From IMG/VR virus record IMGVR_UViG_3300022074_000005: a DNA stretch of 64,000 bases, one strand, 5' to 3'. Both the position numbers and the translations under genes were made by a program. The notes under the pieces are model-generated. The model was not told where the DNA came from, made no database searches, and saw only the letters and a list, made by a program, of their open reading frames with translations. Shown here in pieces: positions 13,701 to 59,003 of this stretch. This DNA comes from a virus. Within the stretch, counting starts at the first letter, position 1; each line of letters begins with the position of its first letter.

Positions 13701-13730
13701 ATATTAACAAATTGAAGGTGATTATGTCAA
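13701..13730 (-). promoter_or_regulatory. sigma70-like promoter for epimerase
   Basis: CCCTTGACA-18 bp-TAATAT with TG extended -10 on minus strand. Confidence 0.55.
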
Positions 13731-22200: not shown

Positions 22201-25200
22201 GCGTCTGTTACTTCAAAAGACTCTGCATCCCTTTCAAGTAATGACAAGTTAGTGTAGTACTCTAAGTTTTGAATTCTTTTTTGTAGTTTACCAATATCTC
22301 TCATAGTAAACCTTTGAGTTTTAAATCTTTCGATTTCAACATCTGTAGGTCTAAATGTATAAGCAGGTATGAATAGTTTAGCTAGTTTCATAGCATTTTC
22401 TAATTCTTTAGGTTCAGTTGGAACTTCAGCTGAAGAACCTGTAATAACTTTAAAATCACCTTCTTGAGTTAAGAAAACTAAAGCTAATCTTGATAGATAA
22501 AATTCTAAATCTGCTGTTCCTAGAGTGTTTGGTTTTGGTGTATCTACTGTTGATGCACCTGTGCCATCAAATTGTCTATGAAAGAAATCAAACGAATTGC
22601 CTGTAATTGTATCTACAGAACCAATAGAATCTGTTGCACCAGTAACGTTTTCACACGTTGGTCTAAAATCAACGACATCTGTTAATGGAAACTCACCAGT
22701 CGGTTCTGGTTCATCTGGGTCAACTCTTGTTGCTGTATATGTTGGAATATTACCATATCCCATTTGACCAGCGACATCTGAATATGAATCTACTGTAAAG
22801 AAAGAACCTGAAGAATGACTGAAGAAATCAAATACTACTGCTAGTCTTCCTCTAGGTTTTGATGCACCAGCTTTTAATTGTATTCTAGAAATATCATAAA
22901 GGTTATCTCTTTGACCTGTGTCTAGTAAATAATTTGAAGTAATAATTTTAGAACCAGCTGTTACACTTGAAACTATAGCAGTTGCACCAGAGGACGCACC
23001 TGTAATTGTTTCACTTGCCTCAAAGTTTGCAGCTCCCACACCATCTTGTAAATAATATGTAATTGGTGATGTTGGATTAATAACTCTTGCTACTGCACCA
23101 GAAGTTCCACCAGTAATTTTTTCTCCTCTAACAAAAGTACCATTGACTGTTGTTAAAGCAATTGTTGGTAATGATGCATCTGAACTTGTATCCTCAGAGT
23201 CAAACACAGCACCTAAAGTAAAAGCATCTGCTCGTCCTAGTGATATTGTATCATCTGTTGCTCTTGTTCCAAACGCACCTGTTGTTGCGCCAGCAACTTT
23301 AACAACTTTAGATAAGTTAGTTGTTTTTAATCTAGCAGAGATAGATGTTTTTAATAGTGTTGCAGTTAATTTAACTTTAGCACCATTTCCAAAACTTGTA
23401 TTATCTGATATTGTAATTGTAGCTGTACCTGTGCCAGAGATTGTTGACTCAACATCTACAATATCTCCTTGAGATGCACTTCCACCAGAACCTGCTGTTA
23501 AAACCGATAATGTATAATCGATATCTGTATAAGATAAAAATGTTTCATTTGCACCAGCAGTAAATGATACAGCACCAGAAGAGTTTGTTGTTGCTATAAA
23601 TTGTCTTCTAATTGTCATCTGCGTATCAGACGAACCATTGTTATCCTCTGTCAATAATGTTTTAATTGTAGGTTTAGGTAATCTATATAATGCAATATTT
23701 TTTTCTGCTTGATTTAATTTACCAATCTTTTCAGATTCTAATGCAACTGTTGTTGAGTTATCTTCTTCAAGAACTATGTTATCATTTGCATCTGTAGATG
23801 AAGCATCCGTACCATCTAAAACTATTTGACCATCAACACCTGTTGTTGTTGATTCTAATACAGTATCAGCAGTAAAGTCTTGACCACTGTCTGGGTCATC
23901 CATAAAGAAACTTCTTGTTTCTGAAAATATGTGTGTAACAATATTTGATATTGTTAAATCTGCGTTAGATGAATTTTCTACAATCTGATCTGTTTCTGCA
24001 CTATCAGATACTATAAGTTTTTCACCTGTAGTAAAAGTACCAGAAACATTTGTAAGTACAACTTGAGTACCACTCGTTAGTGTACCAAAAACAAAACCTG
24101 TTGCATTTGACGAAGCACCTTTAACTCTAACTCCACCATTACTATGATTAGCAGTTAATGCTGAACTTGGGTTATCGTTTAATGTTAAGTATGTAAATGG
24201 TCTTATATCAAAAAGATATAATCTGAATACTGCATCTGTATTTCCCATAGTACCAGACTCGTATTGTATTGTTCTTGCTCTTGCGACCCCTATTTGCGTA
24301 CCTGAAGCTGTTCCTCTTGTTGACGTAACATCATCAAATAGTTGAATTGTTTTGTATGCAGTTGTCTCACCAGAGATATCTGTTACATCTGGTTGACCAT
24401 ATACATTTGTTATCTTAACAAAGTTTCCTAATTCTGCGTTTATTGAACCTGCGTTTACTGTATCAAATTGTCTTGACTTTTCTACATCTTTAAAAGTGAT
24501 AGTTGGTTTTTCTAATTCATATCCTTTTACATATGCCTTACCTGGTGATATAGCTAATATAAATTTACCTTCATCTGCTGTTCCACCATCGCTAGTAGTA
24601 TCACCAGAAGCATAAACACCTCTGAAACTTTGACCTTGATATCTGTTATCAAGCATTTCTCTAGCATCTAATTGAAAAGGTCTTACTGTATAGTCACCTG
24701 ACTCGTCAAACGTTCTTCTTGCAAGTGTATCACCTAATACTGAATATTCAGTTGGTCTTGCATCACTTTGAATTTCACCATTTTTTACTCTAGCAATTTC
24801 AACAAACTCATTGTCAGCTGTAGATGTTAAATCTAAAGATGTTAAAGTTAAACTCATTTTTAATCTATGAGCACCTTTAGCTGCAAAGTTTGAAGCACCA
24901 GTTGCGTTATCTGTTAAAGATTCATCAACTTCTGGTGTAACTAATTCTTCGTTTAAACTTATACCTATTCTAGCTGATGCAGTTTGTGAATCATCTGATA
25001 ATACAAGTGTTTGATCTGATAGTTGTACGAATGTTCCTCTTATATAATAAACACCACCTGTTGTACTAACAGCTGTTCCTAATTGTGAAGCGCTTGTGTG
25101 AGTTGTTGCTGAATTAGTGTTTATTGCATAAGTTGTAGTGTGTGTAATAGATGTATCAGCGTAAATGTTTTCAGAGTTTTGAAATATAGTTGTCTCTAAA

Positions 25201-34492: not shown

Positions 34493-35563
34493 TTAATCGC
34501 CAATGATTACAGTTGTTGATGCGCTTTCTATTTTGTTTGAACCATCAGAACCTGATATACCTGCAGGGTCATCGCCTGTATCAACTTGATCGTCTAGACG
34601 AGCTGCACCTTTAGTTCCGCTATTGAGATTAATTGTTTTTGCGTCAATTGTACTATCGCCTGTTACATTTTGATCGTAAGTTCCTTTAATGTTTTCTATA
34701 ACGTTACCATCAACTTGTATATTCCAATCACCCTTGACGTAAGTATTACAGTTTGCGTCAATAGTAAGATTGACATCACCTTTGACATTAACAAATTCTT
34801 TACCAGCGACTATTTGATAATTGTCACCAACTATTCTAGTAACTTTATTTCCGTCCTTATCTATTTCATAGAACGTACCTGACTTATGATATTCATGAAT
34901 TCTTTCTGCATCTGTTGTATCGTCATATTCTTTTATGTGACCAGATGAAGTTTCTATTACATTGTTGTCAGGGTATACAGCTGCGTAAGTAGATGCTGGT
35001 TCATCAAAAGTTTCATCGGAATTAGCGATTGGTATTGTTTTGCTTCGGCCTTCTTCTTTAGTTGTTAGTACTGTATGCGATAAATCTGTTTCATTCTTCG
35101 CAAGTCTATTAACATCACTCTCAATAAATTGTGTTTCTGTAGTATAATCATTATTATCTTTATCAGTACCATGACCAGAGTTAGAATTTTTTTGTTCGGG
35201 GTATACGTCATTAGGGTCAGAGAAACCAAAACGTTTGTCTTTGTAAGAGGGTTTACCTTTGAGAGTTCCCATGACAATAGGATTTTGCATCTCAGCTGCA
35301 TCCATATAGAAACCAACTACCCAAGTTCCGTTTACTATTTTAGAAAACTTACCGATACCTTGCATCGATGTGTCATTTGTTGGCGACATAACAGACGCCC
35401 ACGGTAAACTATCCGTTGGTATATCTGTTAAATCTTTTGTATGGAAACCATATGATCTTACTTTGACTCTTCCTAGTTTATCAGGGTCGTTATTATCTTC
35501 TACAACTCCAACAAACCATTTAAAGCCATCTAGACCCATATAGTGCTGAGGATTTTTTGCCAT
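34493..35563 (-). CDS. gp5: baseplate central spike (gp5-like) lacking lysozyme domain
   Basis: WFVGVVEDNNDPDKLGRVKVR OB fold, YPDNNVIETSSGHIKEYDDT, VxGD beta-helix repeats; PAAR-like tail. Confidence 0.9.
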   Translation of the reverse strand: MAKNPQHYMGLDGFKWFVGVVEDNNDPDKLGRVKVRSYGFHTKDLTDIPTDSLPWASVMSPTNDTSMQGIGKFSKIVNGTWVVGFYMDAAEMQNPIVMGTLKGKPSYKDKRFGFSDPNDVYPEQKNSNSGHGTDKDNNDYTTETQFIESDVNRLAKNETDLSHTVLTTKEEGRSKTIPIANSDETFDEPASTYAAVYPDNNVIETSSGHIKEYDDTTDAERIHEYHKSGTFYEIDKDGNKVTRIVGDNYQIVAGKEFVNVKGDVNLTIDANCNTYVKGDWNIQVDGNVIENIKGTYDQNVTGDSTIDAKTINLNSGTKGAARLDDQVDTGDDPAGISGSDGSNKIESASTTVIIGD

Positions 35564-36796: not shown

Positions 36797-37129
36797 TTAT
36801 TGGTATCCACCCGAGGTTGAAAGATCGCTCTGCTCGAACCCCTTGTCCGTAACCACATAACTGACATTATTTAGTTTGAATATGTCACCCATCTGCGTAC
36901 TTCTGGCGTGTGGAACTTTACAATCTACATATTTGTTTTGATACCATGCATCACTAATACTTTGTGATAACATATACGCTTTGTCTAACGCATCTTTTGT
37001 ATTCAGTTTGTCCGACACATATATGTCAGCAACATGTTTCATATGATAACCATAGAGATCATCAAAGACATGATGTACCTCGACTTTATAGTTTTTGTTT
37101 AAAAGGGTTAAATTGTTGAGTAGACCCAT
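36797..37129 (-). CDS. hypothetical protein
   Basis: 110-aa ORF with RSTQMGDIF (YodL-like RSxSxGD pattern). Confidence 0.6.
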   Translation of the reverse strand: MGLLNNLTLLNKNYKVEVHHVFDDLYGYHMKHVADIYVSDKLNTKDALDKAYMLSQSISDAWYQNKYVDCKVPHARSTQMGDIFKLNNVSYVVTDKGFEQSDLSTSGGYQ

Positions 37130-37271
37130 AATATTTTTTCCATAGTATATTGCATATTAAGTAAAAAGGATATAGAAGAGGTACACGTTTAACATGTTTT
37201 CCTCTTACAATTAACATTGTCCATATCCAAGAACCTTGAATATGACTAAAACCTATACATCCTTTTAACAT
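37086..37271 (-). CDS. small hypothetical protein
   Basis: SD GAGAGG upstream as in other early genes. Confidence 0.5.
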   Translation of the reverse strand: MLKGCIGFSHIQGSWIWTMLIVRGKHVKRVPLLYPFYLICNILWKKYYGSTQQFNPFKQKL

Positions 37272-37464
37272 AATATCCTCTCTTGTATATTCATTGACAC
37301 CGTGTCAAATTACATAAGGGCATCGAAGAGTAGGCCCAGACACGGCGAACATCGCTTTAGTGCATACACATAGGGGTAACTACGATGCTTTAGAGAACCC
37401 CGCTGTTTGCGTGTGTATTCATTGTTATGTCATTTTAGTTGATTCCTCTCTCATTCATATGATA

Positions 37465-37493
37465 ATACTATCATACGCAGACGTATTTGTCAA
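37465..37493 (-). promoter_or_regulatory. sigma70-like early promoter P1
   Basis: TTGACA-17 bp-TAGTAT. Confidence 0.75.
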
Positions 37494-37599
37494 GGCATTT
37501 AAGTGTTTGAAAAGACACCAGTTTTAGGGGGGTGGGGGTGAGAACAAAGAAAGAACATTGATATATTCTAGAAACTATATATTGCATTTATAGATTACC

Positions 37600-37805
37600 T
37601 CTGACCTAGTATATAAGGCGAAAGGGGGCCTCTGAGTAAACTATGAGGATTGCCGAGACCTCTACTTCCACCCCACACCTCTACGAGGAACTTTCAGACA
37701 GAACATCCTACGTGGGCCACAACATCCTTAAAGAAGTCTCGGCGCATACTCGGTGTTTCTCATATCTACATTATACAATGGATTTCATTTCACTACCGAG
37801 TATTC
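37600..37805 (-). ncRNA. putative structured non-coding RNA downstream of P2
   Basis: Starts at predicted TSS with 9-bp stem (37795-803/37746-54), then 12-bp stem (37732-43/37652-63) that pairs fully only on minus (G-U); GC-rich; no plausible minus ORF noticed. Confidence 0.55.
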
Positions 37806-37809
37806 TTTC

Positions 37810-37838
37810 ATAATACATCATTTGGGGGTAATTGTCAA
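37810..37838 (-). promoter_or_regulatory. sigma70-like early promoter P2
   Basis: TAACCCTTGACA-17 bp-TATTAT. Confidence 0.75.
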
Positions 37839-37915
37839 GGGTTATTCTGAGATACTTTGAGAATACTATGAGAATGCTTAGAGCTAATATACTATACCCA
37901 GCACCCTCATAGGGT

Positions 37916-37944
37916 ATTATACAGGTAAACGCCAAACTTGTCAA
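37916..37944 (-). promoter_or_regulatory. sigma70 consensus promoter P3
   Basis: TAACCCTTGACA-17 bp-TATAAT. Confidence 0.8.
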
Positions 37945-38096
37945 GGGTTATTTTGGTCAATGCTGTCGCAGCTGTGTATGGCCACCAGGCCTTTTTCGTG
38001 TGTAACTCTGAGAAACCTCTGAGAAAATGCCGAGGTGCCGCAGGATTTAAACACAAAGACCCTATATTCTTTTGAGCCTTTTTTTAGTTCTTCCGA

Positions 38097-38243
38097 TTAT
38101 CGATGTTTTGGGGTTCTCTTGTTCCTATTACCTCTCATATAGTGCTCTCCTGGTTCGTAATTCCACTTCATACCGTGATGTCCTCTGATATCACAATAAA
38201 GCATTCGAAGTTTGACTATAAGTTTTCGTATTGGTAATGGCAT
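38097..38243 (-). CDS. small basic hypothetical protein (48 aa, not in ORF track)
   Basis: MPLPIRKLIVKLRMLYCDIRGHHGMKWNYEPGEHYMRGNRNKRTPKHR; late-like AATAAATA upstream. Confidence 0.6.
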   Translation of the reverse strand: MPLPIRKLIVKLRMLYCDIRGHHGMKWNYEPGEHYMRGNRNKRTPKHR

Positions 38244-38303: not shown

Positions 38304-38762
38304 TCATTCCCACACATAGAAGATGTGGTCACCTATCTGTATGGTCTTTCTCTTCGTTGATGCCCACTCTGGTGTTACATATGTGGCGTGATAGTGCGTA
38401 GCGCCGAGCGTTATATCCTCTGCCTTTAAAGAATTAGCAATGGCGGCGGCCATCATTGCGTTCTTCCATGCTTCCTTATATCTGATCTTATCTGATTTAC
38501 CATCGCAATACCAAGAGAATTGGCAACGATTTTTTACGGGCCAATAGATAGGGTCTAGCGTATCATCGTTCCTTGTCTTCCAACTCTCATACACTGGTCC
38601 TTGTTCTACTACTTCGCATATAGTATTGGGAAATCTTTTGTCCTCTACTCTATTCAGTACTACTTGAGCGACTGCGACTTGACCCTCAAATGGTTGATTT
38701 TTTGCCTCGTGATATACATTCATTGCAAGACATAAAAATCCAGCTGCAATTGTCTCAAACAT
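38304..38762 (-). CDS. SleB-like cell wall hydrolase (Hydrolase_2)
   Basis: CLAMNVYHEA, AVAQVVLNRV, CQFSWYCDG, GATHYHATYVTPEW, IGDHIFY. Confidence 0.92.
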   Translation of the reverse strand: MFETIAAGFLCLAMNVYHEAKNQPFEGQVAVAQVVLNRVEDKRFPNTICEVVEQGPVYESWKTRNDDTLDPIYWPVKNRCQFSWYCDGKSDKIRYKEAWKNAMMAAAIANSLKAEDITLGATHYHATYVTPEWASTKRKTIQIGDHIFYVWE

Positions 38763-57884: not shown

Positions 57885-58287
57885 CAAGTGTCCTCTGAAA
57901 TTTGCCAGCATGAGACTTTTCTGCTTTTGCTAATGTTTCAAACCAATCTGCGATTTCATCAAAACCTTCGTCTCTAGCAGTTCTTGCCATGCCAGGATAC
58001 ATATCAGTATATTCGTGTGTCTCACCTTTTATAGCTGATTGTAAGTTTTGTTTAGTTTCGCCCATAGGTTCACCAGTTGCTGGGTCACCTACTTCTTCTA
58101 GATATTCCATATGACCATGAGCATGACCTGTCTCTCCCTCTGCTGTGCTTCGGAATACTTGAGCCACATCTGGTGCTCCCTCTATATCTGCTTTTTGTGC
58201 AAAATAAAGATAACGTCTGTTTGCTTGACTTTCGCCTGAAAAGGCTTCTTTTAGATTTTCTGCTGTTTTACTGTCTTTTAGATTCAT
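57862..58287 (-). CDS. rubrerythrin (erythrin-type, no rubredoxin domain)
   Basis: [47 protein letters not shown]. Confidence 0.93.
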
Positions 58288-58312
58288 AATATTCTCACTA
58301 TTAATTAATTAA

Positions 58313-58545
58313 GTGCCTGTTTCTGTTGCTAGGTACAGGCAAACCCCGAAGAATTAAGCCGCTAGGCTGTATTCTCCATATGCAAAATTATTGTTTGCAT
58401 CTATGGTTGTGAATCCTCAGCTAAGATACTCGTCAGTAGTCGAAACCTATTTCACCCCCTAAGTCGAGGTTATCTAGGTTTGGTGGAGGTGTAGGGTATC
58501 GCACCCTAGTCCTAACTGCATTTCTACAAAGCGTCACCGAACTCA
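58313..58545 (-). ncRNA. ssrA: two-piece (circularly permuted) tmRNA
   Basis: Acceptor piece ends CACCTCCACCA (58481); coding piece starts GGGGGTGAAATAGGTTTCGAC (58459); G3-U70 acceptor stem; tag ANNNFAYGEYSLAA* (58398-58354); outer ends approximate. Confidence 0.92.
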
Positions 58546-58549
58546 ATTT

Positions 58550-58580
58550 TATTTATACCACATTTGGGTTATAATGTCAA
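58550..58580 (-). promoter_or_regulatory. dual sigma70/late promoter of tmRNA
   Basis: TTGACA-17 bp-TATAAA; the -10 is also a perfect TATAAATA. Confidence 0.8.
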
Positions 58581-59003
58581 GAGCTTTCTTACATTTACAG
58601 ATGTATTTTCAGGTAACTCACCTTCTAATATCTGAAAACCTTGTCCTATTGCTAATACACATGCCATATTCCAATTAGGATGAAACTCAAAAATTGTAAA
58701 CGTTTGAGTTGTAATATTTACAGCAGTAAACACCCATACATAAATTTTAGAACCATCATCTTTCATCAATTGTCCTTGCCCCATAAATGCTCTATACTCG
58801 CCTTTTCTTTCTAGAACATCAATAAAGGCATCGCCTTGTTGACATAGATGTGGTTTAGTTATCATAAATGGTCTTGTGTCTTCCAGCATACCTTCTGGTG
58901 ACATTTTCATTTCTGGTTGTGTTGATTTTGTATCTGGTGTATTTGCTACTGCATTAACGCCAAAAACAAAAACCAAACTAAGTATTATTAGTAATTGTTT
59001 CAT
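58569..59003 (-). CDS. hypothetical secreted/periplasmic protein
   Basis: Signal peptide MKQLLIILSLVFVFGVNAVA; two Cys. Confidence 0.65.
   Translation of the reverse strand: MKQLLIILSLVFVFGVNAVANTPDTKSTQPEMKMSPEGMLEDTRPFMITKPHLCQQGDAFIDVLERKGEYRAFMGQGQLMKDDGSKIYVWVFTAVNITTQTFTIFEFHPNWNMACVLAIGQGFQILEGELPENTSVNVRKLLTL

Follow-up and report, generated by a model that had tools for sequence, protein, structure and literature searches.

A conserved locus of predicted early promoters and structured RNAs upstream of gp5 in an uncultured marine T4-like myovirus

A stretch of about 0.8 kb in the genome of an uncultured marine T4-like myovirus is probably an early small-RNA and leader locus, in a place where related phages also carry tRNA genes. 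The DNA analysed here (the window) is 64 kb long, and the stretch in question (the island) lies 1.7 kb upstream of a gene for a gp5-type baseplate hub (34493-35563, minus strand). Judged by its conservation among relatives, the island appears to be a real locus of early promoters and structured RNAs, to whose RNAs functions can be assigned provisionally. In the arrangement that we propose, a promoter, P2, would drive an RNA that begins with a hairpin, hp1, and continues into a second structured element, R1; another promoter, P1, would drive a strong ribosome-binding site with a mini-ORF, followed by a structured leader, R2, and by the gene orf110. R1 would be produced early and abundantly; it would then either be freed from the transcript's 5′ end and persist as a stable small RNA, or act in cis on the transcript that carries it, while R2 would control the expression of orf110 in cis. 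A third promoter, P3, would mainly supply read-through transcription.

An earlier note, made from the sequence of the window, had described the island as devoid of credible genes, and this is borne out. No ORF of more than 66 aa is found in 37272-38096, and alignment of the island with its relatives reveals frame-breaking indels of 1, 2, 4, 10 and 11 nt which, not being multiples of three, mark it as non-coding. The gene-free stretch ends upstream at 38096, because the 48-aa ORF that bounds it there (38097-38243, minus strand) has tblastn homologs with 54-71% identity in contigs L027, L065 and L178, as well as DNA matches. This ORF is a real conserved small gene; it is rich in basic residues, its homologs occupy differing genomic positions, and it may be a mobile small gene. 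A weak terminator-like hairpin, read from the sequence and putatively functional, follows it (38045-38083, minus strand; AAGGCTC / GGGTCTT and a T-rich tail), and the TGTGTTTAAA tail of this hairpin is kept in all relatives (L207 and L258-L262). The GC content of the island is indeed higher than that of its near flanks, as had been claimed, but only modestly so (0.35-0.46 versus 0.29-0.40). ARAGORN and Rfam RF00005 found no tRNA gene in the island, and the Rfam comparison that the note had proposed likewise returned no family of Rfam 15 that matches the island at E<=10.

The neighbours of the island are DUF4385, two 2OG-Fe(II) oxygenases and a cell-wall hydrolase (38304-38762, minus strand). 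Elsewhere, the window carries a permuted alpha-type tmRNA at about 58.3 kb (58263-58584) and TATAAATA late-promoter octamers 5′ of its late genes; one such octamer (58550-58557) is at the edge of the phage tmRNA gene. The nearest cultured phages, Melnitz among the matches, are distant, with gp5 identity of at most 42%.

Relatives of the island were collected by several routes. IMG/VR held one near-identical contig (L081, the same as L082 and L205). Short ENA contigs were reached via homologs of orf110, and L207 and L208 via a pattern made from an invariant loop (the P1-loop pattern), which gave three matches in metagenomes; the third, L206, was discarded as a chance AT-rich match. L207, L208 and the short ENA contigs constitute lineage 2, whose identity is about 78% over the full length of the island. 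More distantly related phages, represented by longer contigs, were reached via a fragment of a 2121-aa virion gene, and all five of these contigs that cover the region upstream of gp5 possess a tandem-promoter island with R1, in which two to five tandem TTGACA-17-TATAAT promoters head the same gene cluster. Two of the five islands, those of L258 and L259, include a tRNA gene (Arg-tct and Asp-gtc, respectively). These two contigs also have a conserved ORF of about 50 aa (M-W/E-..-HPS-Y..) between the first two island promoters (L258:2340-2520 and L259:255-400), which is missing from the window, where the first two promoters are only 106 nt apart. In Methylophilales phage Melnitz (L347), a tRNA-Leu (76219-76303) sits directly upstream of the gp5 OB-domain gene, which is the position of the island. 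Contigs from RNA libraries (X1, X2, X4 and X5) cover the island and its flanks alike and possibly represent carried-over DNA; being assembled, they carry no RNA ends, strands or levels and are therefore uninformative on transcription. An apparent break of P3 in one X2 variant was dropped, the variant being probably lineage-2-like with the gap placed differently.

The earlier note had placed three promoters on the minus strand of the island, and a promoter scan confirmed all three as the best sites, each with a spacer of 17 nt: P3 (37916-37944; TTGACA-17-TATAAT with an upstream AATAACCC box, 12/12 match), P2 (37810-37838; TTGACA-17-TATTAT, 11/12) and P1 (37465-37493; TTGACA-17-TAGTAT with TG, 10/12). 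The sequence CCTTGACAA is common to all three, and CCTTGACAA-N15-19-TANNAT has five matches at four sites in the 64 kb, three of these sites being in the island, versus 0.03 matches expected. In the relatives the hexamers are kept while the sequence between them changes. The spacer of P3 is replaced in L207 and L208, and counterparts of this promoter are present in L258, L259, L260 and L262; spacers have diverged around conserved hexamers for P2 in L207, L202, L280, L271, L258 and L259, and for P1 in L207, L202, L203, L280 and L271. The 17-nt spacing of all three promoters is retained in lineage 2, L280 and L271, and promoters with unchanged hexamers and spacing but replaced spacers are likewise seen in L258-L262. 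Such retention of hexamers and spacing, with replacement of the spacer sequence, indicates that the promoters are under selection. All face in one direction and would be the early promoters of the phage, of the sigma-70 type used by host RNA polymerase. Promoters of the A(A/T)TAACCCTTGACAA type (AATAACCCTTGACAA) also head small-ORF clusters at 13730, 44103 and 55010 in the window; a scan with the box AATAACCCTTGACAA itself gave mostly noise. No terminator is evident inside the island of the window, so the RNAs started at P3 and P2 may be no more than an extended 5′ UTR that belongs to the orf61-orf110 operon.

The predicted P2 RNA has hp1 at its 5′ end (37746-37803, minus strand; z -3.0). It consists of a 9-bp stem that closes a conserved loop of 40 nt, with an inner 4-bp hairpin inside the loop. 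Lineages 1 and 2 have this loop without any difference, and compensatory substitutions are seen in L280 and L271, where a C-G pair of the outer stem has become A-U and CATT/AATG of the inner hairpin has become ATCT/AGAT. R1 comes after hp1 (37652-37743, minus strand; 91.1 bits and E 1e-21 with a covariance model, model R1). Its layout is a 12-bp basal stem (stem P1), a TTAAGG junction, a stem of 5-6 bp (stem P2), an optional hairpin, GAAAGTT, a further hairpin (hairpin P3) and ..GAAGT. We defined the R1 family by a closing stem of at least 6 bp and free sequence, TTAAGG, the 5-6-bp stem P2, GAAAGTT, the P3 hairpin and GTGT, all of which are found in the member from the window.

A double change and two wobble changes in lineage 2 leave the 12-bp stem paired. 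In L258, L259, L260 and L262 the closing stem is wholly different, yet it pairs; these contigs retain TTAAGG and GAAAGTT(C) and show covariation in the inner helices. Pair counts from alignments A7 and A9, which were built against the models, lean towards the structures; the R1 seed, a seven-sequence MAFFT alignment that predates model fitting, has 90.2% of cells paired, compared with 65.6% in shuffles (none of 500 reaches the real value), and compensatory changes in 13 of 20 pairs. With 35 distinct sequences the figures are 95.4% and 66.6% (again 0/500), slid controls pair at 38-53%, compensatory changes affect 15 of the 20 pairs, and between four and six pair types are seen at each pair of the closing stem. 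There are 32 G-U pairs against 3 A-C mismatches, which indicates that the RNA strand is the strand read from the promoters. R1 has a variable closing stem of 12 bp joined to a conserved three-way core. The proposal that the promoters feed structured RNAs of the minus strand stands for P2, with hp1 and R1, and for P1, and falls for the hairpin at P3; covariation in homologs, which the note had named as a check, is found by pair counts against shuffles for R1 and R2 and as compensatory changes for hp1.

We searched for R1 elsewhere with a pattern made of its unpaired motifs only, the stems being excluded. The pattern retrieved 61 IMG/VR contigs, and every one was accepted by the covariance model (E<=2e-5). 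In 596 Gb of bacterial and archaeal genomes it matched 22 places, a number at or below chance, and none of the 22 passed the model. Fifty further contigs of relatives, most without coverage of the locus, gave a single weak match to the model (L263, G053:C1:21547-21653, minus strand; 22.6 bits, E 8e-4), in a contig found via its hydrolase gene; it may be a divergent member of the family. R1 members in seven other loci match no Rfam 15 family at E<=0.1, where only tRNAs match. Among cultured phages, blastn with the island and three R1 loci returned nothing relevant, and the model found nothing in HTVC008M or Melnitz; literature searches found no description of such an RNA. Together, these searches suggest that R1 is an undescribed RNA family, widespread in uncultured marine T4-like phages.

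The surroundings of R1 are in part constant and in part variable. Proteins are shared with the window in 41 of 60 R1 loci, and gp5 is nearby in 16. Of 64 R1 instances, 49 have a strict promoter on their own strand no more than 200 nt upstream, and in 19 of 33 distinct promoter-bearing contexts the extended R1 stem begins 4-18 nt after the -10 box; in other phages R1 is usually at the predicted 5′ end of an early transcript. In the clade of the window, hp1 is inserted between the start and R1, and there is no T-tail after R1. Elsewhere, a T-rich tail directly after the R1 stem (13/42 contexts) makes compact promoter-RNA-terminator units. The downstream cargo is not constant: some contexts have tRNAs, others small membrane ORFs or a 193-aa gene, and some have nothing. 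In 14 of the 64 instances, tRNA genes (Arg-tct, Trp, Ser, Thr and Asp) are found on the strand of R1, 14-400 nt downstream of it. In L296 (4290-4470) and L277 (reverse complement), the interval from R1 to the tRNA genes contains one or two hydrophobic ORFs of about 25-35 aa.

Two accounts of how R1 may work deserve attention. The first, which we regard as possible but rather doubtful, is that R1, alone or together with hp1, acts in trans as a small RNA of the phage and titrates or mimics a host factor, for example as a protein sponge, a decoy for tRNA processing or for an anticodon nuclease, or an anti-defence RNA, and does not act on its own transcript. The compact units of promoter, RNA and T-tract, the strong early promoters and the association with tRNA genes are consistent with it, as is the conservation of the junction nucleotides while the closing stem is free to vary; against it, R1 is not followed by a terminator in the window's own clade. 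A ToxI-like antitoxin mimic would be expected to show tandem repeats of about 36 nt, and the tandem repeats of the island are 11-nt units only (1.9 and 2.6 copies). Base pairing with phage mRNA also speaks against this account. The invariant block at 37579-37600 could pair along 22 nt (10+12 nt around a single bulge) with a late mRNA, that of the 2121-aa gene, at 23676-23698 (minus strand). This best complementarity is probably a chance one, because 2 of 100 shuffles score as high (p ~0.02) and the target is not conserved, varying at synonymous sites even in relatives that are 95-97% identical.

The second account, also tentative, is that R1 is a cis-acting regulatory RNA at the 5′ ends of early transcripts, either a polymerase-modifying antiterminator like the put RNAs or a ligand switch with a stem and T-tract terminator. 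The put RNAs of phage HK022 are antiterminator RNAs just downstream of the early promoters and consist of two adjacent stem-loops. R1 resembles them as a structured RNA of about 70-100 nt at or near +1, before variable cargo; unlike them, it forms a closed three-way junction, and there is no similarity of sequence or architecture. R1 is followed by no consistent class of downstream gene, and such variable cargo makes it a poor fit to a gene-specific cis-regulator.

R2 presents the opposite case, in that it always lies in the 5′ UTR of one gene family, the position expected of a cis-regulator. Right after the P1 start there is a Shine-Dalgarno sequence, GAGAGG, with a two-codon mini-ORF (ATG ACA TAA; 37425-37450, minus strand). 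It is kept in all lineages, each of which has ATG-NNN-stop behind a strong Shine-Dalgarno sequence (ATGGATTAG, ATGACATAG and ATGACTTAG). R2 itself (37295-37417, minus strand), recognised by its own model, model R2, and by covariation, is a leader of about 120 nt under promoter P1; the earlier note had credited P1 with no structured RNA, and this covarying element is what lies downstream of it. R2 has five helices, of which helix 1 encloses helix 2 and the 9-bp helix 4 encloses an invariant GGGC hairpin and an invariant bulge, TTATGTAAT. Helix 4 occurs as CCGTGTC/GACACGG, CCTCGTC/GACGAGG, CCTCATC/GATGAGG and further variants, and the model found extra members in L280, L300 and L271. In the six distinct sequences, which represent only about four independent lineages, 95.6% of cells pair versus 79.3% in shuffles (0/500 reach), with compensatory changes in 15 of 30 pairs, 15 G-U pairs and no A-C mismatch. 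A pairing between a loop and the Shine-Dalgarno sequence was read by eye only.

The gene orf110 (36797-37129, minus strand) belongs to a family that is always downstream of R2 (homologs P0001-P0004, L280:969-1304 and L271:8563-8865); it follows R2 by 10-170 nt in the window, L207, L202, L203, L204, L280 and L271. Between them lies orf61 (61 aa; 37086-37271, minus strand), a small ORF that is dispensable, being deleted in L204, absent from L280 and L271, and replaced by a hydrophobic ORF of about 37 aa in L201 and L202. That replacement is similar to the hydrophobic ORFs found after R1 in L296 and L277. Since R2 always precedes orf110 while orf61 between them is variable, R2 is tied to orf110. 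R2 is clade-specific and gene-linked and is most simply explained, as far as sequence comparison goes, as a cis-regulatory leader of orf110. It may be an operator for a protein, perhaps the very product of orf110, or it may sense a ligand or ribosomes. The orf110 protein has no Pfam or PHROG match, and its predicted fold (mean pLDDT 65.9) has no PDB match below E 0.5. The pseudoknot of T4 gene 32 and the RegA operators are autoregulatory 5′ leaders, and R2 resembles them as a structured, conserved leader that goes with a single small gene family; in contrast to them, it is larger and is preceded by the conserved two-codon mini-ORF.

The hairpin at the start of the P3 RNA (37866-37912, minus strand; 13 bp, dG -19.8, z -3.1) behaves differently from R1, hp1 and R2. 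Hairpins had been noted after both P3 and P2, and both exist; the two G-U pairs seen in the P3 stem are there as well. However, the P3 hairpin is not conserved: its 3′ arm, which is one CTCATAG repeat unit, is deleted or replaced in lineage 2 (L207 and L208). By conservation, it is probably not functional. One might then take the whole stretch for a cluster of strong early promoters and nothing else, the RNA folds being incidental leader with no function of their own. Such clusters are known from coliphage T7, whose A1, A2 and A3 are tandem, strong, near-consensus early promoters for the host polymerase within a few hundred bases. Like them, the island has three tandem near-consensus promoters close together, all directed towards early genes, and the 413-nt region, folded in one piece, is no more stable than shuffled sequence (z -0.85). 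Unlike A1-A3, its promoters are internal in the genome rather than at an end, and they are separated by conserved, covarying RNA. We consider this explanation very unlikely because of the covariation: lineages at least 22% apart share invariant loops in R1, hp1 and R2 and differ in these RNAs by many compensatory changes, and R1 recurs in 61 contigs with otherwise unrelated flanks.

The DNA of the island has further features. Two 11-nt phased TTCTCAGAG units lie about 60 nt upstream of the P3 -35 box (38006-38026, minus strand), identical in lineage 2 and degenerate in L258 and L259. About three more phased 11-nt units (TTCTCATAG, TTCTCAAAG and TCTCAGAA; 37845-37875, minus strand) abut the P2 -35 box; they are kept in L207 and L202 and have decayed in L280. 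Phased CTCAGAG arrays occur in the 64-kb window only within the island, and the 11-nt repeats appear to be lineage-specific, with no conservation beyond close relatives. By their architecture the arrays resemble DNA sites for a protein that binds direct repeats and could be lineage-specific sites for a regulator of P2 and P3. A scan of IMG/VR with CTCAGAG-N4-CTCAGAG-N4-CTCA matched only an unrelated group of high-GC phages.

Downstream of R1 is a near-invariant block conserved among relatives (37550-37622, minus strand; core TAATCTATAAATGCAAT). Its core contains TATAAATG (37585-37592), an octamer like those of T4 late promoters, and AATCTATAAA is found 41-160 nt downstream of R1 in 27 of the 64 family instances; the octamer of the window could therein serve as a late promoter. 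Upstream of P1 there is a C-rich box, CCCCCCTAAAACTG (37519-37532, minus strand), conserved in L207, L258, L259, L271 and others. In the relatives L264, L266, L272 and L274, downstream of their R1 copies, a two-part element made of CC(C)TTAAAACTG, 19-20 nt and TATAAATGCAATAAG is found repeatedly, 20-40 nt upstream of gene starts. This element looks like a separate promoter class, with a T4-late-like octamer and an upstream box; in the window its halves are in the opposite order (37585-37600 and 37519-37532).

It had also been suggested that the island is an origin of replication, primed by transcription through an R-loop. Such an origin, or one of the iteron type, would compare with oriF, oriG and oriE of T4, the promoters giving the primer and the 11-nt repeats acting as iterons. 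The strong promoters do adjoin helically phased repeats unique to the island in the 64 kb, and T4 oriE is annotated in the gene 5 region, to which the island is close. An origin here is nevertheless highly improbable: the skew has no inflection and follows gene orientation only; the GC content of 0.46 downstream of P2 is the maximum of the neighbourhood, so no unwinding element is there, and neither P2 nor P3 has an AT-rich unwinding stretch immediately after it; the promoters carry -35 boxes rather than MotA-type boxes; and the repeats decay in L280, L258 and L259, whereas the RNAs persist. Least probable of all, and scarcely credible, is that the island is decayed coding sequence (the outcome that the note had named as refuting an RNA locus) or a set of unrecognised small protein genes: the ORF of about 50 aa in L258 and L259 and a 38-aa ORF with a Shine-Dalgarno sequence that starts in the invariant block could be taken in its favour, but indels between lineages break the frames, the 38-aa ORF shifts frame after codon 15 in lineage 2 and has substitutions with no third-position bias, and six-frame tblastn of the island against related loci gave nothing below E 1.

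Our preferred reading, an early small-RNA and leader locus, finds its closest parallel in T4. According to the T4 annotation, eight tRNA genes together with the stable RNAs rnaC and rnaD (species 1 and 2 RNA) lie between gene e and the 57-1-3-2-4-53-5 cluster. The island and this region have the same place, with a lysis-type hydrolase gene on one side and the baseplate cluster of gene 5 on the other, and in both, small non-coding RNAs lie beside tRNA genes that include tRNA-Arg(UCU), the tRNAs on our side being those of the relatives; the window itself has no tRNA gene. The RNAs differ: rnaC has a tRNA-like T-arm that R1 lacks, and R1 is placed ahead of the tRNAs, at the transcript's 5′ end, whereas rnaC and rnaD come after tRNA-Arg. 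Model R1, run with filters off on T4 66000-80000, had its best hit at E 0.44, which is not at rnaC or rnaD. The resemblance is thus one of position only, and there is no homology. The island would correspond to the locus of tRNAs and small RNAs that related phages carry upstream of the gp5 cluster, with the tRNAs missing, a match in position that the earlier note had not brought out.

Few of the marine T4-like phages that infect abundant heterotrophs have been cultured, and little is known of the control of their transcription. The nearest described group, the pelagimyophages, is reported to be without the T4 regulators alt/mod/motA/asiA (PMC7029224); the lack of these early and middle regulators would, speculatively, leave room for control based on RNA. 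The locus described here yields two RNA elements supported by covariation, and for R1 a motif is now defined with a model, an alignment and boundaries that can be used for biochemistry. R1 can also serve as a marker for phage loci of early small RNAs and tRNAs. If R1 does act in cis, it would point to RNA-based timing of early transcription and of tRNA expression in marine T4-like phages. The long-unexplained association of stable RNAs with tRNA genes in T4 appears to have analogues in its oceanic relatives.
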